DNA of 64,000 bases from a virus. Below are positions 3,107 to 25,766 of this stretch, piece after piece (position 1 is the first letter of the stretch; each line of letters starts with the position of its first letter). Position numbers and translations under genes: made by a program. The DNA is taken from IMG/VR virus record IMGVR_UViG_3300031231_000003, positions 32,001-96,000 of that record. One strand, written 5' to 3'. Under the pieces are notes generated by a model that had not been told where the DNA came from, did no database searches, and was given only the letters and a program-made list of their open reading frames with translations.

Positions 3107-3934
3107 TTAAAGTTCTCGTATCATTTGATCGAACGTCGGGATGTTCAATCGTTCGTTCAGATCATGGATCGTTGAAAGTGATCGATCAACACGAATTTCA
3201 TTCTCAATTGGACGAATCTTCATTCGAAGATCGTACCTTTCGTTGAACTTACATAGCATTTCATGCTTTGACAATGTGCTTGAAAACACATGGCGCTTGA
3301 CGTTGTCGTAAAGATCATTCTTGATAATATCATGACAAACATGAGCAAATTCAACATTGGTGATTCCATTCCAGAGATGGTTGGTGAAACCATCAACCTG
3401 TTTTCCTCGTTGAGAAATTGCCCATTCCAGCAAGCTGTGACTTGAATTCAACTCTCGACCGATGATGCTCGTTCTCAAAACCATGCAATTCGAGGGTTCG
3501 CCGAACTTCTTTGAATGTCCATAATCTGTATCGGGATCAAAAATATCCGTCTCAACGTAGGAACCCTTCTTTCCCGAGAATACACAATCAGTCGTAGGAT
3601 GGATCATCTTGATTTCGCGATCCTGACAAACATCAGCGAGATGTAACGGAAACGAAGCATTCAATGAAATGTATGAAGTCTTTGAATATTGCTTTTGAAC
3701 GATTGCACCAATGCAATTGATCAAAAAATCACAATCGGGAATCTGTTTGCCACCTTTTTCATGGTAAAATTCATGAGAAATATTGAATTCGAACGTACCA
3801 TCAAGACGGTCATTCGTTAACTTTCTTACCGATGGTAGGATTTCATATCCTTTCTCTCGAAGAACACGACAGACCGCGTGTCCTAACATTCCGGTTGACC
3901 CGAGGACAACCACACGTTTATTCTTCATCGTCAC
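3107..3934 (-). CDS. rmlD: dTDP-4-dehydrorhamnose reductase-like SDR
   Basis: VLGSTGMLG, INCIG, TTDCVFSG, YGHSK..GE, RTSIIG and WNGIT motifs. Confidence 0.85.
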   Translation of the reverse strand: MTMKNKRVVVLGSTGMLGHAVCRVLREKGYEILPSVRKLTNDRLDGTFEFNISHEFYHEKGGKQIPDCDFLINCIGAIVQKQYSKTSYISLNASFPLHLADVCQDREIKMIHPTTDCVFSGKKGSYVETDIFDPDTDYGHSKKFGEPSNCMVLRTSIIGRELNSSHSLLEWAISQRGKQVDGFTNHLWNGITNVEFAHVCHDIIKNDLYDNVKRHVFSSTLSKHEMLCKFNERYDLRMKIRPIENEIRVDRSLSTIHDLNERLNIPTFDQMIREL

Positions 3935-4937: not shown

Positions 4938-5855
4938 TTACAAACTAGCAATCAGTCTACGATAAGGCTCGTATCCACCAGGCAATTTCATGTGTTCAAC
5001 GTTCGGAATTGTGGCGAGAGCTCGTGTAACATCAAAATTGATCGCCGATTGCGGAAGAACTTGTTCCGAAATTCCAACAGGTGTAGATACAACTGGAACA
5101 TTCAACAATGCTGCTTCAATCAGACTTTGTGGACCGCCTTCGCATCGAGATGCAACTATGTAAAGATCGGCACATTGCATTAGTTCACAGAGATCTTCGT
5201 GTTTTGGAAGTTCAAAGTAACTGTATGGAATTTTTGCTTTTATCAACCTCTGAATTGCATATTGCCTTCTCCACGCCAGTAAAAGACAATGCAGGTTTGG
5301 ATGCGTTGACGCTTTCATCTTTTCAATCGCGTCAACGAACAAATCTGCACCCTTTTCAAGTTTTGGCAAAAAATTACCCGATTGAATCGAATCTCCTTCA
5401 GTGTCCCGCTGCGCTGAGATCACGATAAAAGCATCCTGAGGCAAGCCATGTTTATCACGCAGTTTTTGCTTCGAAAATGTTGAAGGTTTGTACAAATTTT
5501 GGTTTGCCCAATAATGGATCAGCTCGATCGGTTTGTCCGTCAAAGTTTTCACAAAATCAAGAACACGCTCATTGAACACGTGGTAAACATCCGTGATCTC
5601 ATCACGTGTTGCAAAATCATGACGTTCTTCAACACCGAATTTTTCCTCAACAATATGATGAATAGTGGTGATCACCTTACGTTGTTTCAATAATTCATAG
5701 GGAATTCTTTTGTAACACCAGTCACCCAACAGCCAGATCACATCGGCATCGATGGGATGTTGAACGCTGATGTCGATATTATCCTGATCCCATTCTTTTT
5801 TGAACCTATCAACGATCCAATTCTCTTGAGGGGCTAAAACGAATACTTTGTTCAC
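4938..5855 (-). CDS. GT4 (GT-B) glycosyltransferase
   Basis: EKG.DLF and ADLYIVASRCEGGPQSLIEAALL.VPVVST.VG (E-x7-E). Confidence 0.9.
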   Translation of the reverse strand: MNKVFVLAPQENWIVDRFKKEWDQDNIDISVQHPIDADVIWLLGDWCYKRIPYELLKQRKVITTIHHIVEEKFGVEERHDFATRDEITDVYHVFNERVLDFVKTLTDKPIELIHYWANQNLYKPSTFSKQKLRDKHGLPQDAFIVISAQRDTEGDSIQSGNFLPKLEKGADLFVDAIEKMKASTHPNLHCLLLAWRRQYAIQRLIKAKIPYSYFELPKHEDLCELMQCADLYIVASRCEGGPQSLIEAALLNVPVVSTPVGISEQVLPQSAINFDVTRALATIPNVEHMKLPGGYEPYRRLIASL

Positions 5856-5945
5856 TTAACATCCCAGATCTCTGAAACTTCAATGATTTTTTTTGCTAAC
5901 TTGTAGACAACAACACACCCGATCACGAATGCAACTCGTTTCCCA

Positions 5946-6179
5946 TTAATCAATTTTTTCATTTCTAATGATTCTCACGTTCCTTGTGTAATCAGCATTC
6001 AACGAATACGATGAAAGTCTTTGACGACAATTATGTAGTTCTAAACAATCGTATTCCACTGACGTTCCATAGGATGATACAAATTTCATAGAAACGATCA
6101 ACTCAACTCGATCAATGGATCCCATTGTGTCCCACAACAACAGATCACCCGGCCGAATGTCTCTAAAGGTTAACTTCAT
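5946..6179 (-). CDS. Small 'PGD'-family protein
   Basis: DIRPGDLLLW N-terminus shared with several ORFs in the window; overlaps the GT4 gene end. Confidence 0.6.
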   Translation of the reverse strand: MKLTFRDIRPGDLLLWDTMGSIDRVELIVSMKFVSSYGTSVEYDCLELHNCRQRLSSYSLNADYTRNVRIIRNEKID

Positions 6180-7107
6180 TGATCAACGATTCAAAGATTG
6201 AAATGTACTTTTTCACGACGTTCTTGATATCGATATCGAGATGTTTTCCCAGAGATGATGTTTCGGGGAGTAGAGATATTTGATTGACATCAATGAGAGG
6301 AGGATTTTCGTAATCAATCAACTCGTAAGAGTAGTCTTTTGGTTCCAATAATTGGACACCAAATCCTTGAACGAGTTCTTTCGTTCCACCGAGATTCGAA
6401 CAAATCACGGGAGTTCCCTGCATCAGTGATTCAATCACCGTATTGGGGCAATGATCGAGGTACGCGAGATGGATCATCCAGTCTGACACAGCAAATACCT
6501 GTTCGCAAATTTCATGTGGAAGATTGCCAGTGTAAAAAAGATCATTACCCGAAATTTGTTCGGCATTGTTACCCATAATGATCATGCAGGAGTTTTGATA
6601 GAGGCCGTTCTTCAGATGCCGAAACAGTTCAACGTTTTGTCGTAACCGTTTTTGACCGTGCCAATTAGCGGAACAACAAAAAATCTTGTCGTACGTTTGA
6701 CGTAGTTTGAGAATTTCAGAAGCGATGTCGGATTCATTCTTGATTGGATCAATGTAGATTCCGTTATGGACGACAGAACCTGATCGATTTCCCCACCAAT
6801 GAGTGACCATGTTCTTGTCGAATTCCGATTGCCAGATGACATGATCAACGAACTCATAGCTTCTCTTGATTCCTCGATTCTTGATCTTGAATTCATTCTC
6901 ATCCTTGAACCAAATTCCGTCCAAACGAAGGACGACGGGGGCTTTGTAATCACGAAACGATGTTTCAATGAATGCAAGGACTACATCGTAGTCATTATCA
7001 TCCGCAATGACGTGTCCTTGATTCAATAATTCGGTCGCTAAACGTTGAGCGAAACTATTGGGACCTGTTCGACTTTGAAAATCGCATCCATCGAAAAGAA
7101 CTTTCAT
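6163..7107 (-). CDS. GT4 glycosyltransferase (start likely ATG 7107, MKVLFD)
   Basis: RLDG, WQSEF, VVHNG and DHCPNTVIESLMQGTPVICSNLGGTKELV. Confidence 0.88.
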   Translation of the reverse strand: MKVLFDGCDFQSRTGPNSFAQRLATELLNQGHVIADDNDYDVVLAFIETSFRDYKAPVVLRLDGIWFKDENEFKIKNRGIKRSYEFVDHVIWQSEFDKNMVTHWWGNRSGSVVHNGIYIDPIKNESDIASEILKLRQTYDKIFCCSANWHGQKRLRQNVELFRHLKNGLYQNSCMIIMGNNAEQISGNDLFYTGNLPHEICEQVFAVSDWMIHLAYLDHCPNTVIESLMQGTPVICSNLGGTKELVQGFGVQLLEPKDYSYELIDYENPPLIDVNQISLLPETSSLGKHLDIDIKNVVKKYISIFESLINEVNL

Positions 7108-7343
7108 CGAAAGTACCGAGCGACGCCAAAAGCACAGGCGGCGAAGAAGCAAGCAGTGAATTCGTTCCCTCGGCCGTATACGAATAGACAAATTGTGCAT
7201 CCAGCACAAGCTACGAAAAACCCGAGACCCGTAAAAAACATTCGTGGGGATTTCATCAACGTGTCCCCAACAAACGAGCACGGAGCGAAAGGATGCTCGA
7301 CGTGAACACAACGACGTTGACAATCACGCACATAGTATAGCAA
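7104..7343 (-). CDS. Small membrane protein
   Basis: Two hydrophobic segments; stop overlaps the next ATG; start uncertain. Confidence 0.4.
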   Translation of the reverse strand: MLYYVRDCQRRCVHVEHPFAPCSFVGDTLMKSPRMFFTGLGFFVACAGCTICLFVYGRGNEFTACFFAACAFGVARYFR

Positions 7344-7430
7344 ATTTGATATGCTACCTTGTCAAAATGAACATCGAGCGCCTTACCGCCGCAAAGACAC
7401 ACAACGATCAAACAGAACAAACAAAAAAGA

Positions 7431-7661
7431 TCATAGATGATTCTCTTCTTCACTGTGACCTCCGTATGAAACGTACTTGTCGTACAATCGTCTTGCTTGA
7501 ATCGCAACAATCGTCATGAAACAACCAAAGAACAACGACCACAATGCTTTGCTAGTTGATTCAGAAATCAAAAAGTAAAAGAGGGGTGGTAAAGCACACA
7601 CGATGTAAATCATGATTCGATTCATATCGTTAATTACATCTTCCACGCGAATTTTCATCAA
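7431..7661 (-). CDS. Small membrane protein
   Basis: Two hydrophobic segments, coupled within the operon. Confidence 0.45.
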   Translation of the reverse strand: MMKIRVEDVINDMNRIMIYIVCALPPLFYFLISESTSKALWSLFFGCFMTIVAIQARRLYDKYVSYGGHSEEENHL

Positions 7662-8023
7662 TTCCTCCTTTTAAGGGCTTCGATCACTTCGATCTTGAAA
7701 TCGGTGCCTTCGAACAATGCAAGCATCGTCACAAGATCCTTGTTGTTGATATTCTCGAGCCTTGCTCGTTTATCAAAAATGTTGGGATCGAGCTCTTGAT
7801 TATTGTTAATCAAAATTCCGTCATAGAATTGTTGAGCAACATAATTGCAACATTCGTTCGAGATCTTCAATTCTGCATTCTCAGCGATGAGTTGAACGGT
7901 TCCAAATACGGTTTCGTAGATCGCTAAACACGTTGTTTTGTCAAGAGGTCGACCATCAGTGAACTTCGTTAAATTCTGTGAAAGAAGTCTCGAGAAGGAT
8001 TCGTAAAACGTTTGTTTCACCAT
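7658..8023 (-). CDS. Hypothetical protein
   Basis: 121-aa ORF in operon orientation with normal composition. Confidence 0.7.
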   Translation of the reverse strand: MVKQTFYESFSRLLSQNLTKFTDGRPLDKTTCLAIYETVFGTVQLIAENAELKISNECCNYVAQQFYDGILINNNQELDPNIFDKRARLENINNKDLVTMLALFEGTDFKIEVIEALKRRN

Positions 8024-20068: not shown

Positions 20069-21416
20069 ATGAAAAAGAAAAACTTACGTCCTTGACACGA
20101 ACGTTCTTTTGTTTGATCCCAGTGCTCTTGAACAATTTGATGACAATGAAATCGTTGTACCGCTAGTTGTCTTTGAAGAGCTTGATAGAAACAAGGGACG
20201 TTTTGACGAAGTTGGCAGGAACGCAAGAAAGTTCAGTCGTTCGTTGGACGAGCTTCGATCAAACGGTAATTTGTTCACGGGAATCACGCTTCGTAATGGG
20301 GGCATCTTTCGTGTTGCATCGATTGACACTTCTTGCGAGCTCCCTCGTGAGCTTAAGAATTCGTCAGTTGATAACACGATCGTCCTTTACATGCTTCAGC
20401 TCAAGCAAGCAGGCGTCGATGCAAAGTTGATCTCGAAGGACATCAACCTTCGATTGAAGTGCGATGCGCTTGATCTAAAAGCTGAAGATTACCTGAAAAG
20501 TAGCATCAATAAGAACATCGACGAGCTGTATTCGGGCGTCGAATCGCTCGTGCTCGATGATGAACAACTGAACGATTTCCATTCCACCGATGAACTTTTG
20601 ATCGAGTCGGAGAAGGTGTTGTATCCCAATCAAATCATCATTCTAAGGGATCACCTCAACAAATCATCCGGATTTGCACGATGCGTGAATCAAAATGACG
20701 AGAAATGCTATAGGCTTGTTTCCGTGAAGACTCATGCGAACGTTTACGGTCTGAAACCCCGAAACAAGGAACAGAACTTTTCGTTGGATCTTTTGTTGAA
20801 TCCAGACATCAAGTTGATCACATTGACTGGTAAAGCGGGTGGTGGTAAGACACTGATCGCTCTAGCATCTGCGATGGCACAATTGAAGATGCCAGGAAAC
20901 GATACGGGACATTACGAAAAGCTCGTCATCACTCGCCCAATCCAACCCGTCGGCAAGGATCTGGGATTCCTTCCGGGAACGCTGGACGAAAAACTGGATC
21001 CTTGGATCGCGCCCATCAAGGATAACATCAACTTCCTTGTCAAGAACAAGAGGACAAAGAAGGCGAATGAAGCCAAGGAATCGTTTTTGACAATGCTTCA
21101 GGAACGTGGATTGATCGAAATTGAAGCGATCGCTTACATCAGGGGTCGTTCAATTCCGAATGCATTCCTGATCGTTGACGAGGCTCAGAATCTTTCGATT
21201 CACGAACTCAAGACGATCGTTACTCGAGCTGGTGAAGGAACAAAGATTCTCTTGACGGGTGACATTGAACAGATCGATAATTCGAATGTGGATGTCCACA
21301 CGAACGCATTGACGTATGCTATCGAAAAGTTCAAGGATTACCCGCTCGCTGCTCATATGACGCTGCTCAAGGGTGAAAGAAGCGAGTTAGCAACTCTCGC
21401 CTCTCAGATCTTGTAA
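20069..21416 (+). CDS. phoH: PIN-PhoH (PhoH2-type) protein; one extra A at 20078-20082 hides the N-terminus
   Basis: Corrected start MKKKTYVLDTNVLLFDP (PIN); GKAGGGKT, GFLPG, RGRS, DEAQN and GDIEQID. Confidence 0.93.
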
Positions 21417-21443
21417 TTTCTGTCTGAACTAGCTATTTATGGA

Positions 21444-22090
21444 ATGAAATTTAAGGTTTACGTTGATTACACTACGGAAGAAATTCCGCGACCATTTTAT
21501 GTTGGAAAGGGTTCCCAACAAAGACTTCAACGAAAAACACGTAATAATTTACACACGAGAATTAGTTTGAAATATGGGTACGATCGTCAAGTTTTTTTAG
21601 AAACGGACGATGAAGAATTAGCATTTGAAAAGGAACGTGAATTAATAAAAGAATTTGATACGTTTCTTTGTGGGGGAGGTTGGGGGGCTAATTTTACGAT
21701 GGGAGGGGAAGGTGTTTCGGGAATTCCGAATCCGCGGTGTAGGGGTGAAACCCACCCTATGTACGGTAAAAAACATTCCGATGAATCAAAACGCAAAAAC
21801 AGTGAATCAAATAAAATTGCTACTTCGGGAGAAAAGAATGGCATGTTTGGTAAACATCATAATGAAACTACTCGAAAAAAATTGGAGACACCCAGCGAGG
21901 GTGGAATCACACAGAAGAATCTAAGATAAAGATTGGTAAAACCATTAGCACTCGTCAAAAAGGAAGAAAACATTCTGAAGAAACAAAGCGAAAAATTGGT
22001 GAATCTCATCGAGGAAAAATACCGTGGAACAAAGGATTGAAAAAAAATGCACGTAACGATCTTTCAACCCTTGCTTCTCAGATTCTATGA
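21444..22090 (+). CDS. GIY-YIG homing endonuclease with NUMOD3 repeats (frameshift at A-run 21875-21881)
   Basis: KVYV..FYVGKG..R..N.T.GGEG; repeats MYGKKHSDESK and MFGKHHNETTR continue in the shifted frame as GRKHSEETKRKIG..PWNKG. Confidence 0.85.
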
Positions 22091-22272
22091 AGTGTTGGAA
22101 ACCATGCACGAAATTCAAACTAGTGAACTTTAATGGTCGCTCTGAGCGATGCATGGAATTCAAAAAGAAATGGCGTGCAAACTTGAAACCATGTCGTGAT
22201 CCAAAAAATTGCGGATGTTATCCACTTTTTGAAGAGAGGATCGCTTGGTTGAAGAGTACACAAAAATGCTAG
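22087..22272 (+). CDS. Small Cys-rich hypothetical protein
   Basis: ATGA overlap with the displaced PhoH-like stop. Confidence 0.45.
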   Translation: MKCWKPCTKFKLVNFNGRSERCMEFKKKWRANLKPCRDPKNCGCYPLFEERIAWLKSTQKC

Positions 22273-22363
22273 GGAACTTACGTTCCCGTTATGTGAGACG
22301 TTAGAGTTCGTCCAACCGCTTAACCGTCGGGCTAATAACGGTCGTACCCCAGCAGAGGTTAGT

Positions 22364-22370
22364 TACTTAT
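22364..22370 (+). promoter_or_regulatory. Candidate late promoter TA(C/T/A)TTA (representative copy)
   Basis: TACTTAT 3 nt before the structural operon; variants at 21434, 46436, 48972, 58316, 63575 and 16765(-). Confidence 0.55.
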
Positions 22371-22373
22371 GAC

Positions 22374-23306
22374 GTGAGCGGTATACTAGATTCAAAAAAG
22401 AGAATCCTCGACGTCGTATTGACCGAAGAAGGGCGAAAACAAGTTGCTCGTGGTGATCTGAGAATTGATTCTTATTCATTTTCTGACGCGGGTACGTATT
22501 ACAGGGGCGACATTGCGAGTGGTAGCGCGGATGCAACGGTTCGTTTGCAATTCGAGTCGTCGAACCTTCCACAGGATTCGATAACGTTTGAATCCAACGA
22601 CGACGGTCGTCTCTTGTCTTTCAAGAATTCTGCTGGAATCCAATTAAATGATGGGTCGATAATTGAATTCACAACATCAGTTACTTCTTCGGCCACTTTC
22701 TTGAAAGGAAGCGAGTTCACGGATTCCGTTGATGAACTTCTCGTATCATCGATCGGAAATTTCAACAAACTTCAACTGTTGGCAACTCGAGATAACTTGT
22801 TCGATGATTCTGCGTTCGGTTTGAGTAGTTCCGCCGTGGAATTTCTCATTAAGGATGATTCACCGATCGAGGATCGATCATTGTGGACTGCGAACGTGAA
22901 CAACGAAGAAAGTCTATTCAACGATCCACGTCTTGCTCGTTCATTGAACTTTAGGTACCTACCTCCCTCGAACGGTGGTGGATCCGACCTGGGAACGTAT
23001 CCACCTCTCGGCACGACCAACGGGAACTTAGTTACGTATGAACAATTGAAGGTCGAACTTGATGCGTTCGAACAACTCGGTCTCTCTAAGACGATCAAGT
23101 TCGATCCGACATCACGAGAAAATAACTTATTCATGCAATTCTTTGAACAAAACTACAATCAACTCTCTAAGTTGAGGATCATTGATTTTGGAAAGTTCAG
23201 AACGTCAACGAATTCGCTTGTACACGTATTTTTTGCTGGAAATTTATTCGTTGATGACAAACAAAGCCACACATTTTCGCATGTATTCACCATGGTATTT
23301 TCGTAA
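22374..23306 (+). CDS. Putative virion structural (baseplate/tail-associated) protein
   Basis: ILDVVLTEEGRKQVA..SFSD...Y N-terminus is paralogous to 36661-37377; late-type motif upstream; heads the large structural operon. Confidence 0.6.
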   Translation: MSGILDSKKRILDVVLTEEGRKQVARGDLRIDSYSFSDAGTYYRGDIASGSADATVRLQFESSNLPQDSITFESNDDGRLLSFKNSAGIQLNDGSIIEFTTSVTSSATFLKGSEFTDSVDELLVSSIGNFNKLQLLATRDNLFDDSAFGLSSSAVEFLIKDDSPIEDRSLWTANVNNEESLFNDPRLARSLNFRYLPPSNGGGSDLGTYPPLGTTNGNLVTYEQLKVELDAFEQLGLSKTIKFDPTSRENNLFMQFFEQNYNQLSKLRIIDFGKFRTSTNSLVHVFFAGNLFVDDKQSHTFSHVFTMVFS

Positions 23307-25766
23307 TGTTCTACCGTATTCAAAGGAAAACCAACCTCTTAAAGGTAGATCCGTTCTTCGCAACGTTGCAGAACATATCGACGCAAGGTGATTTGAAATT
23401 CGAGTTCAGGTACGTTGTCAACCAACTGAAGATGCTCGATCTGGGTTCGACCGTCGTTCGCGTCAGAATCCTGAACAAGATCGTGACAAAAAATCCTACG
23501 TTCGTGAATTCACGAATTGGATTCGATGATTCGAAACAAGCAGTGAAGAATATTCTTCAACAATCACAGGATTCGAAGAAGGCTCAAAACCAGCAAGAAA
23601 CTGAGATCATTGCCACAAAATTGAGTGATTTTTCATCAAAAATAAGTAAAGAAGTTGTCACTGCGATCAAAGCGGGTGTACCCACTGAAGATATTCCCGC
23701 GTTGAGAAAGAACGTACTGAGAACTGTTTCAGTCAACGAGATCAATCAAAATAATGATCTGAAGCCGATCTTACAATTCATCTCTCACGAGAATTTCACC
23801 AATGTTTCCTCGTCTTTCAGCACCGTCGATGAACAAAGTATGATGTACAGAATGGTCACTGAAGAGGGAGTCGATCCTTCGAGCATCGTTGATCTATCTC
23901 ACAGGAGCGTTACGGCAAAAAAACTCATTTGAAGGAATCTTGAGAAGGACTAAATCTCGTGAAACCGTCATCGATTCCGTGAGTCAATTGTTGAACATGC
24001 ATCTCGTGGGACAAGTTCAATCTCTAGAATTCGATAGAACATCATCTTCGGATTTCAACGATGACTCACAAAAAATTCAGATTCAAGATTCAGTTTTCTC
24101 TGATGAGATTGAAATACCCACTTCGATGGTGATATTGAATCGCGTCAGAAAGCGTTTAGGAACGAATGGTTCACAATTCATCGTTCAATTCGAATTGATC
24201 GATCGAAAGACAAAAGCAAGCATTCAAATTGTTTCTAAGCAATTGAATGTTTCAGAGCACATTCAACAATTTCAATTACCCGTAAAAGCACCCGATGTCA
24301 ACATTACGTCATCAAGTTCGTCTCGGGTCAATCTTGAGGTCAAGCAAATTGATCGCAATTCTTCATTGATCGATGTTTACAAAAAAGTGATCAACGTGAT
24401 CAACGTTGATAATGATGAGTACAAGCACGTAAAAACTCTCACCGTGAATCCCGATCAATTCATCAAATTTCCCGTTGATAAACCGTTGACATCAACGATT
24501 CTGTACAGATTCATTCCCCGTGGGAAGAACGACAGGCTGGGTTCAAGTTACACGAACATCATACTGAAAACTGACAGGGCGGTTCAAGATAAGTCTCTCT
24601 CACTTGTAACTCGTTTAGTTGAAACCGGCATCGAGATCGAAGCATCCTCATTTCCTCCCGGGTTGGTTTCAATCGAGTTTTTGGGCAGAAATCTATCGAC
24701 GTTTGAAAAATCGTACAGAAACATTGGAACGGATAATTTTTCAATCACTGAATCGATAAGAACCCTTGATTCAGTTTCCGTGATTGATACGTTGACATTG
24801 AATGGTGACGTTTATGAGTACGTCGCTAGAATGCATTTCAAGTCAGGAATTCCCGAGTATTCACAAAGTTCCGTGATCGAAAAAATTGAATTCAAACGAG
24901 ATGAACTTGACATCATTGTTTCACAGTTAAGCGTCGTGAATGATTTGAACAATCCAAACGTGACATTCACGATCAACGTTAGGCTCGTTGATAATGATTC
25001 AGACATCACTCGAAAATTGCTCGAACGTTCGGGACTGAAGAATTTGTTCGAGAACGAGTTATTGAATGAACGTGATCTGATAAAAGATCTTGTTTCATTT
25101 AACGTTCAAAGGATCAATTTGACTACAGGAGAACGAGAAAATTTTGGAACATTGACGAACAACATTTTTAATGATGCAAATCTACAAAAGAACAATTCCG
25201 TAAAACCGTTGAAATTCGATCAAAAATACCAGTACGAAGTGTATGCAATGCTTCGCTCGGCCGAGACATTGTTTGAAACATTGTTAAAAACGAAGGTTGA
25301 TCCTACAACGGGTAAGTCATACCAGTTTAAACCATCGAATAAGTACCATCCTCTAGCCTTGATTGAAGGGATTGTAACTACCTCACAAGGTCTAAAAACA
25401 AAGCCCAAAAATGCATTTGAATACGGAAGATTAGGCATGTACGAGGTTGTGAACGTTTCATTTGATGAGAACACCGTCGAAATAAGCAACGTAAAGGCGA
25501 GCAGGTTTGACAATGAAAGAAATGTCATATCATGGGATGTCAACGGTTCGATCAATAAGATTGATCATTTCTTGATCATGAAAGATGTTCATGGTGTAAG
25601 GACAATGATTGGCAAGTCACATGCAAATTCAAAGTTCCAAACAATCCAACACTTTCATTTTTTGAACGAACATGATCGTGGTGAATTCAAGTACGTTATT
25701 GTATTTGTGAGGAACAATTACACGATTAGTTCAGAGTTCGTTTCAAACTCGATTGAGGTAGAATAA
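23306..25766 (+). CDS. Large beta-rich putative structural protein (one gene; +1 indel at A-run 23917-23923)
   Basis: Removing one A joins ..SVTAK to NSFEG..; Ig/FN3-like patterns (YRFIP, YEYV, YQYEV, ISW). Confidence 0.6.

Follow-up and report, generated by a model that had tools for sequence, protein, structure and literature searches.

Two phoH termini at one locus: a predicted homing endonuclease gene at the 3′ end of phoH in uncultured large phages

Where the 3′ end of a phoH gene occurs twice, once at the end of phoH itself and once, 674 nt further on, at the end of an endonuclease gene, which of the two ends is the native one, and how did the other come to be there? The locus that raises this question lies in the IMG/VR virus record IMGVR_UViG_3300031231_000003, from which a stretch of 64,000 nucleotides (bases 32001–96000 of 124,421; hereafter, the window) was analysed; unless another locus is named, coordinates are those of the window and the features described lie on its plus strand. 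The record is estimated to be 36% complete, and its source is probably a very large phage. We consider it probable that a homing endonuclease gene settled at the 3′ end of phoH, such that an imported terminus (copy 1) now completes PhoH, and the native terminus (copy 2), left downstream, supplies the stop codon of the endonuclease gene.

Tail copy 1, RSELATLASQIL followed by a stop codon, forms the present ending of phoH at 21378–21416 (codons: aga agc gag tta gca act ctc gcc tct cag atc ttg taa), and can be read directly from the sequence, as reported in the initial annotation of this stretch. Tail copy 2, RNDLSTLASQIL followed by a stop codon, forms the ending of the endonuclease frame at 22052–22090 (codons: cgt aac gat ctt tca acc ctt gct tct cag att cta tga). 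The two have 9 of 12 residues and the aligned stop in common, but only 25 of 39 bases, and their longest identical run is the 8 nt TCTCAGAT. In 20,000 mononucleotide shuffles of 21417–22373, a match of 9 out of 12 before a stop never arose (the maximum, 8, was reached once), and the next best tail match in the 124-kb record, over 11,619 twelve-residue stretches immediately before a stop, is 6 out of 12. The tail duplication is far beyond chance, and the second tail was rightly described as a codon-diverged copy of the first. In endonuclease-free relatives (loci L003, L004, L023 and L019), the phoH tail reads ERSELAT(L/I)ASKIL before the stop, so that both copies in the window are recognisable as phoH ends; pairwise base identity over the 39-nt tails gives no decision as to which of them resembles these relatives.

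The endonuclease gene reaches copy 2 across a frame break. As assembled, its open reading frame (ORF) spans 21444–21929, halting after an A7 run (21875–21881) that has one base missing relative to the intact homologue in locus L024. The first frame (21444–21881; 146 codons) encodes the predicted GIY-YIG nuclease domain and the first NUMOD3 repeats, and the second (21884–22090) encodes more NUMOD3 repeats and runs into copy 2 and its stop. That the run is short by exactly one base emerges from the pairwise DNA alignment with the L024 homologue, alongside three-frame translation; in a five-sequence endonuclease alignment, an X was placed at the break. The window endonuclease is 66% identical to the intact L024 homologue (231 aa), and Pfam finds NUMOD3 in both frame 0 and frame 2 of the window (E 3.6e-14 and 6.1e-10, respectively; 2e-27 in L024). 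The frame two bases ahead thus carries on the NUMOD3 pattern, and the proposal that the indel-corrected endonuclease ends in RNDLSTLASQIL holds.

The polarity of the duplication is revealed by an allele in which the endonuclease gene is missing. In a public estuary metagenome (run X1; Logan contigs; 0.06 of the sampled words present), five contigs aligned over 20100–23400; four come from other organisms, with a likeness of less than 90%. The remaining one, a 151-nt contig at depth 2, joins 21320–21395 to 22070–22144 with nothing between. It skips 674 nt, which is the exact distance between the tail copies (22052 − 21378), and the joint is in frame, yielding ...ATLASQIL and a stop. To the right of the joint there are no mismatches to the window in 75 nt, and to the left there are five in 76 nt, one of them being 21365 G>T. 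With its divergent left flank, the contig cannot derive from the window genome simply by deletion; moreover, Logan assembly uses a word length of 31, and, since the tails share at most 8 identical nt, a 31-mer assembler could not make the 21395/22070 join from an endonuclease-bearing genome. We read this contig as a natural, endonuclease-free allele of a close relative, with the downstream tail in place.

As this empty allele matches copy 2 and the DNA that follows it, copy 2 (at least 22070–22090) is native; hence, the insert comprises the final part of copy 1 with its stop codon, followed by the spacer and the endonuclease gene. Relative to the endonuclease-free allele, it covers 674 nt (21396–22069), although its joint can slide by up to 2 nt. 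The last 21 nt of copy 1 (21396–21416) fall within the sequence that is absent from the empty allele, and 626 of the 674 inserted nt belong to the endonuclease ORF (21444–22069). In the comparison of relatives' alleles for the ancestral copy, which the initial annotation had suggested, it is therefore copy 2, not copy 1, that the contig equals. Positions 22052–22069 are unmatched in the contig alignment, the 5′ half of copy 2 (RNDLST) not being carried by the empty allele, and are either degenerate or donor-derived. The notion that the old tail was left downstream as the stop of the endonuclease gene consequently stands for 22070–22090, with its flawless match to the contig, and does not extend to 22052–22069.

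Synteny and recurrence point to the same insertion. From phoH to the next conserved gene (22374–23306; MSGILDSK...), which directly follows phoH in relatives, there are 47–55 nt in the endonuclease-free L003, L004, L023 and L019, and 957 nt in the window. Scans with the endonuclease recovered four further loci, L024 (=L065), L066, L067 and L068, and, wherever the context is known (five loci of five), the gene begins 27–40 nt after the phoH stop. In the window, this spacer measures 27 nt (21417–21443) and contains TGAACT, which is also found in L024 and L067. The intact endonuclease gene of L024 is followed, 20 nt after its stop, by a second tail, SALATLASKIL and a stop (L024:3717-3752), in a frame that is neither that of the endonuclease nor that of phoH, and which is closed by a stop five codons upstream. 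This tail and the functional one are alike at 11 of 11 residues and differ at 10 of 11 codons, a pattern that a local duplicate decaying neutrally could not produce; it would suit two tails that had each evolved under selection as working phoH ends before they came to lie side by side. Between the window and L024, the copy-2 tails diverge chiefly at synonymous sites (Ser, for example, is tct in one and agc in the other), and were thus captured separately from working alleles. Taken with the empty allele, these features favour the order of events proposed initially, in which a replacement tail was imported and the old one kept.

Similar tails are found at or near the ends of other members of the endonuclease family. 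With a cut-off of at least 7 out of 12, the tail-bearing proteins among 150 representative homologues of the L024 enzyme are P0005 (..DTLASKIL) and P0006 (..PLATLASQIL) only, the next best scoring 5 out of 12. In the list of 49 family proteins, a phoH-like tail forms the end of three, namely, P0005, P0006 and P0163 (..ELATLAAKIL), and in P0161 the residues LATIASQIL are followed by 13 more from read-through. From the five known contexts, we infer that these four are linked to phoH; the longest contigs encoding P0005, P0006, P0161 and P0163 measure 9.5, 8.5, 69 and 63 kb, respectively. A phoH-like tail is absent from some 190 more distant homologues, and from the record's own paralogue after a thyA-like gene; the idea that relatives unlinked to phoH might carry the same tail, raised in the initial annotation as a point that would count against it, thus finds no support, the tail-bearing proteins being known as sequences only, without a genomic placement. 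The L067 endonuclease (3604-3648) ends in ..KIVDVEELIVTDVL and P0159 in ..KIVDVEEQIVVEIL, each before a stop, and their length after PWNKGLK equals that of the tail-fused end in the window; these ends may be further-decayed remnants of a phoH tail, with a similarity too weak to call.

Within a clade of uncultured large phages, the 3′ end of phoH is the residence of a free-standing GIY-YIG/NUMOD3 gene. When the tail region is left out of the phoH tree, five endonuclease-bearing and five endonuclease-free alleles form one clade (SH-aLRT 99), within which the bearing alleles are scattered rather than monophyletic, with four changes needed. L024 groups with the endonuclease-free L019 (SH-aLRT 86), in a 96-supported clade with L003, L004 and L023, a placement that would fit re-invasion of an empty lineage. 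The endonuclease gene is, in effect, polymorphic, being present at a single fixed locus in some related genomes and absent from it in others. The codons gcc (Ala −5) and atc (Ile −2) occur in four of five copy-1 tails and in none of eight copy-2 or endonuclease-free tails (Fisher p = 0.007; 0.015 with a near-identical trio collapsed), which is compatible with joint movement of copy 1 and the endonuclease gene, or possibly with selection of copy 1 for resistance.

The identification of the protein draws on several lines of evidence. An 80-sequence family alignment shows no variation at Y19, G21, R27 and E64, and at least 90% conservation at Y6 and N83; we take these positions to be the equivalents of the I-TevI catalytic residues. 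The window protein displays the motif VYV...YVG at residues 5–7 and 19–21. An AlphaFold model of the L024 homologue has a mean pLDDT of 85.7 (95–98 over residues 1–80), and its Foldseek ranks 1–10 are all GIY-YIG domains: the UvrC N-terminal domain, I-TevI (1mk0; probability 0.99, TMt 0.63) and PD-T4-3. Additionally, the endonuclease matches PHROG 314 'homing endonuclease' (E 5.1e-18), and the 80-sequence family profile matches the I-TevI DNA-binding domain in the PDB (1i3j; E 0.0013), for which a three-sequence profile gave no matches. Together with the NUMOD3 repeats, the residue conservation and modelled fold identify the downstream gene, as first suggested, as encoding a predicted free-standing GIY-YIG/NUMOD3 homing endonuclease, for which DNA cleavage is likewise a prediction. 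A group I intron was considered and rejected, an Rfam scan of 21300–22500 giving only a sub-threshold miRNA match (E 0.069).

The frame break in the window may be a real inactivating mutation or an isolated assembly error; rampant homopolymer error was discounted as a blanket cause of frameshifts, most of the 49 long runs lying inside intact long ORFs. In the L068 endonuclease (1122-1849), the frame passes from 0 to 2 after ..HTEQARK, and the gene-caller product, P0167, bears an out-of-frame tail. Outside the window, the record carries a second GIY-YIG/NUMOD3-type endonuclease gene (L002 1006-1704, minus strand, equivalent to G000:C1:18072-18770), 32% identical to the one linked to phoH, and directly after a thymidylate-synthase-like (thyA-like) gene (C1:18815-19627, minus strand). 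No duplicate of the tail of the latter gene was found downstream of this paralogue, the best match being 4 of 15 residues.

How might such an arrangement arise? The enzyme would cut endonuclease-free phoH alleles within about the last 40 nt, and repair would copy the donor's phoH end, stop, spacer and endonuclease gene, leaving the break-proximal tail of the recipient to the right of the insert. The invaded allele would then escape recutting, as the donor tail differs synonymously and the insert splits the native site. Cleavage and its position, the exact target site, the resistance conferred by copy 1 and the immunity of the invaded allele, as well as the repair route, are what we infer here from the arrangement of the sequences. 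The intact parts of the remnants begin 7–11 codons before the stop in the window, L024, P0005, P0006, P0161 and P0163, which brackets the presumed break or recombination point to approximately the last 20–40 nt of phoH.

A more speculative extension, which we regard as possible though doubtful, is that the downstream tail is no dead scar, but a working right-hand homology arm that is renewed from the functional tail of the recipient at each homing event. This would account for an L024 copy that is perfect as protein while differing in its codons from copy 1, and for the degenerate 5′ and pristine 3′ parts of the remnant in the window and in P0005. Furthermore, in-frame read-through would provide the endonuclease with a PhoH C-terminal peptide, and preserve the native stop/start junction for the downstream ORF. 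If so, phages would possess a self-renewing terminus-replacement cassette, and the remnants would allow cut sites to be mapped directly from metagenomes.

Several observations weigh against a settlement of the endonuclease gene with an imported copy 1 and a native copy 2. The empty allele is known from one 151-nt contig at depth 2, and no donor of copy 1 was identified. A variable residue is common to both copies within each genome (Q in the window, A in L024), which a purely foreign copy 1 does not predict. There is no evident second tail in L066, L067 or L068; clean residence in the spacer may be the norm for the endonuclease gene, and duplication something that happens only occasionally. 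The gcc/atc association involves 13 short tails that are phylogenetically non-independent, and sliding nucleotide identity along phoH gives no clear co-conversion tract for the window or L024, with a hint only for L066 versus L067. With regard to the protein, the Pfam GIY-YIG model is unmatched by the endonuclease even at E up to 1, only NUMOD3 being found, and the Foldseek E-values are only 0.06–0.6 (0.06–0.16 for the ten best). The window gene is frameshifted as assembled, and may be inactive now; the L068 homologue is likewise frameshifted, in another A run at a different position. Finally, the pairwise identities of the endonucleases parallel those of phoH, which long vertical co-inheritance would fit too.

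This parallel, the in-frame tail fusions of the window, P0005, P0006 and P0163, and the retention of the ATGA overlap with the ORF at 22087–22272 would all suit an old insertion, inherited vertically since the clade ancestor, in which the second tail was kept as something useful, either as the endonuclease C-terminus or for stop–start coupling. We nevertheless consider this unlikely, given that the second tail of L024 is out of frame with both genes yet perfect as protein, that an extant empty allele has an identical right flank and that the 61-aa ORF has no homologue; moreover, the count of fusions is biased, as a protein database reveals in-frame fusions only. Nor do we favour the reverse polarity, with copy 1 native and copy 2 a scrap of a previous host's phoH carried along by the endonuclease cassette. 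The residues just before the remnant (..IDS..) look alike in P0005 and L024, indicating that part of the junction travels with the endonuclease, and 22052–22069 are degenerate and missing from the empty allele, both of which would agree with a carried scrap; the empty-allele contig, however, is identical to 22070–22144, namely, copy 2 with the native sequence that follows, and differs on the phoH side, including where the last 21 nt of copy 1 would fall. Furthermore, copy 2 of both the window and L024 ends in att cta tga, exactly like the endonuclease-free L019, and it is the copy-1 tails that have the gcc and atc codons in common, which makes a reversed polarity very unlikely. It is more improbable still, to the point of being hardly credible, that the shorter contig, instead of representing an ancestral empty site, arose secondarily when recombination between the tail copies removed the endonuclease gene precisely: loss is part of the usual life cycle of homing endonucleases, and direct repeats with the 8-nt identical run do flank the gene, but the joint lies upstream of this run, where the copies share only 2 nt, and it is the left flank alone that differs from the window, the right flank being identical.

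The gene that would have received the insert, phoH (20109–21416), is of the PhoH2 type, as judged from Pfam, PHROG and its IMG/VR relatives: the ORF encodes 435 aa, with an N-terminal PIN domain and a PhoH ATPase domain in one protein (Pfam PIN_4, E 6.6e-19; PhoH, E 2.8e-45), and matches PHROG 2765 (E 1.6e-99). Its true start is likely the ATG at 20069, one base out of frame. Read from there (ATG AAA AAG AAA AAC...), the frame meets a stop after eight codons, and the conserved N-terminus (..TYVLDTNVLL.., which includes the PIN acidic motif) appears in the frame one base on, with the first ~13 codons affected. One extra A in the A5 run at 20082–20086, by comparison with relatives (MKKTYVLDTN), would account for this frame break, which may be either a real pseudogenising change or an assembly error. 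Elsewhere, the phoH genes of L066 and L067 are ~60% identical in DNA in their 5′ parts and 83–87% identical over ~80 codons near the 3′ end, where their identity exceeds that of either to other relatives; this stretch may be a shared co-conversion tract beside the endonuclease gene.

Downstream of the insert, the stop of copy 2 is overlapped by the ATG of a Cys-rich ORF of 61 aa (22087–22272). The ATGA overlap at 22087 is thus present as first annotated, whereas the 'next ORF' it was said to enter proves to be an orphan absent from relatives: it gave no Pfam, PHROG or homologue match, and is not found in the 47–55-nt spacers. Its DNA is native to the lineage, since the endonuclease-free allele contains the first 54 nt after the copy-2 stop. 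Promoter- and terminator-like sites in 21300–22450 do not exceed the shuffled expectation. Between the orphan ORF and the conserved downstream gene (22272–22373), there is a perfect hairpin, GGGAAC-TTAC-GTTCCC (22272–22287), and a second stem, ACCGT...ACGGT; this region has no Rfam match, and a terminator-like call was made on the minus strand only. The conserved downstream gene itself, for which no Pfam or PHROG match was obtained, is syntenic by tblastn in L003, L004, L023, L019, L020, L066 and L068. A ATATTTGT-like motif lies 10–25 nt before the MSGILD... start in L003 (5385-5395), L004, L023, L019, L024, L066 and L068, and is absent before 22374 in the window. In L020, where a different insertion occupies the same hotspot, the phoH tail is extended (..ASKILLLFT and a stop), and ~2.6 kb (5363-8004) with two large Gly/Thr/Ser-rich ORFs (374 and 430 aa) separate phoH from the conserved downstream gene.

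The relatives drawn on here come from a phoH scan of IMG/VR, which recovered 21 that are 44–65% identical. A DNA search of 20109–22400 against 50,697 phage records gave no match, nor did the L024 endonuclease by tblastn against the same records at E 1e-20, and the best relative of the window phoH among cultured phages, again by tblastn, is 39% identical. In IMG/VR, the exact empty-site pattern had no matches, a scan with the 310-aa downstream protein gave no relatives among 12 pattern matches and a scan with P0006 returned L024 as the sole close match, the contig of P0006 itself being absent.

If the settlement of an endonuclease gene behind an imported phoH terminus is the correct explanation, a free-standing endonuclease gene of a phage can establish itself inside the coding end of its target by bringing a replacement terminus. 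For annotation, it follows that the last residues of such endonuclease ORFs may be borrowed from the neighbouring gene. Insertion of a homing endonuclease gene into phage coding sequence is familiar from mobE in nrdA of Aeromonas phage Aeh1, where it splits the gene into two polypeptides; there, as in the window, the gene lies within a conserved coding region and the function of the host gene is not destroyed, whereas phoH stays whole via its replacement terminus. Like I-TevI from the td intron of T4, the window protein combines an N-terminal GIY-YIG nuclease domain, here predicted, with an extended, NUMOD3-type DNA-binding region at the C-terminus; unlike I-TevI, it is not intron-encoded, has 4–5 NUMOD3 repeats and has no identified C-terminal helix-turn-helix.

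A closer phage parallel is provided by the seg endonucleases of T4 (SegA–G), free-standing GIY-YIG genes that, according to a review, target a neighbouring gene (e.g. segF/56, segG/32 and segA/uvsX), are present or absent among relatives, and spread by double-strand-break repair with co-conversion of the flanks (PMC2988022). The window gene is similarly free-standing and placed between conserved phage genes; in contrast to the seg genes, which the same review describes as intergenic, its insert boundary falls inside a coding end, for which a replacement tail is supplied (PMC2988022). The word stem 'duplicat' does not occur in that review, and no phage precedent for a terminus-replacing endonuclease was found in the literature searched, of which the review formed part (PMC2988022).

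The route is, instead, known from fungal mitochondria (PMC3630166), and would here be seen in a new host system. In the fungal mobile endonuclease ORFs, the native C-terminal segment is found downstream of the inserted one; relatives that lack the element have nearly the same DNA as the native copy, and the inserted copy has low DNA identity while being near-identical as protein (PMC3630166, PMC6279837). The architecture of the window matches that of these 'gene hybrids', as described there for atp6 of Allomyces macrogynus and for atp6, atp9, cox2 and nad3 of Glomus sp.: a LAGLIDADG or GIY-YIG ORF occupies the 3′ end of a conserved gene, whose reading frame continues into the upstream copy. 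Moreover, both the window and L024 bear the C-terminal duplicate on both sides of the endonuclease ORF, and the downstream copy in the window matches the element-free allele without a mismatch in 75 nt (one contig, at depth 2). The differences are equally clear: the host is a double-stranded DNA phage, not an organelle, and the target is phoH; the duplicate in the window comprises 7–12 codons, as opposed to the tens to about a hundred described for the fungal elements. Lastly, and unlike in the gene hybrids, the endonuclease frame of the window enters the native tail and uses its stop.

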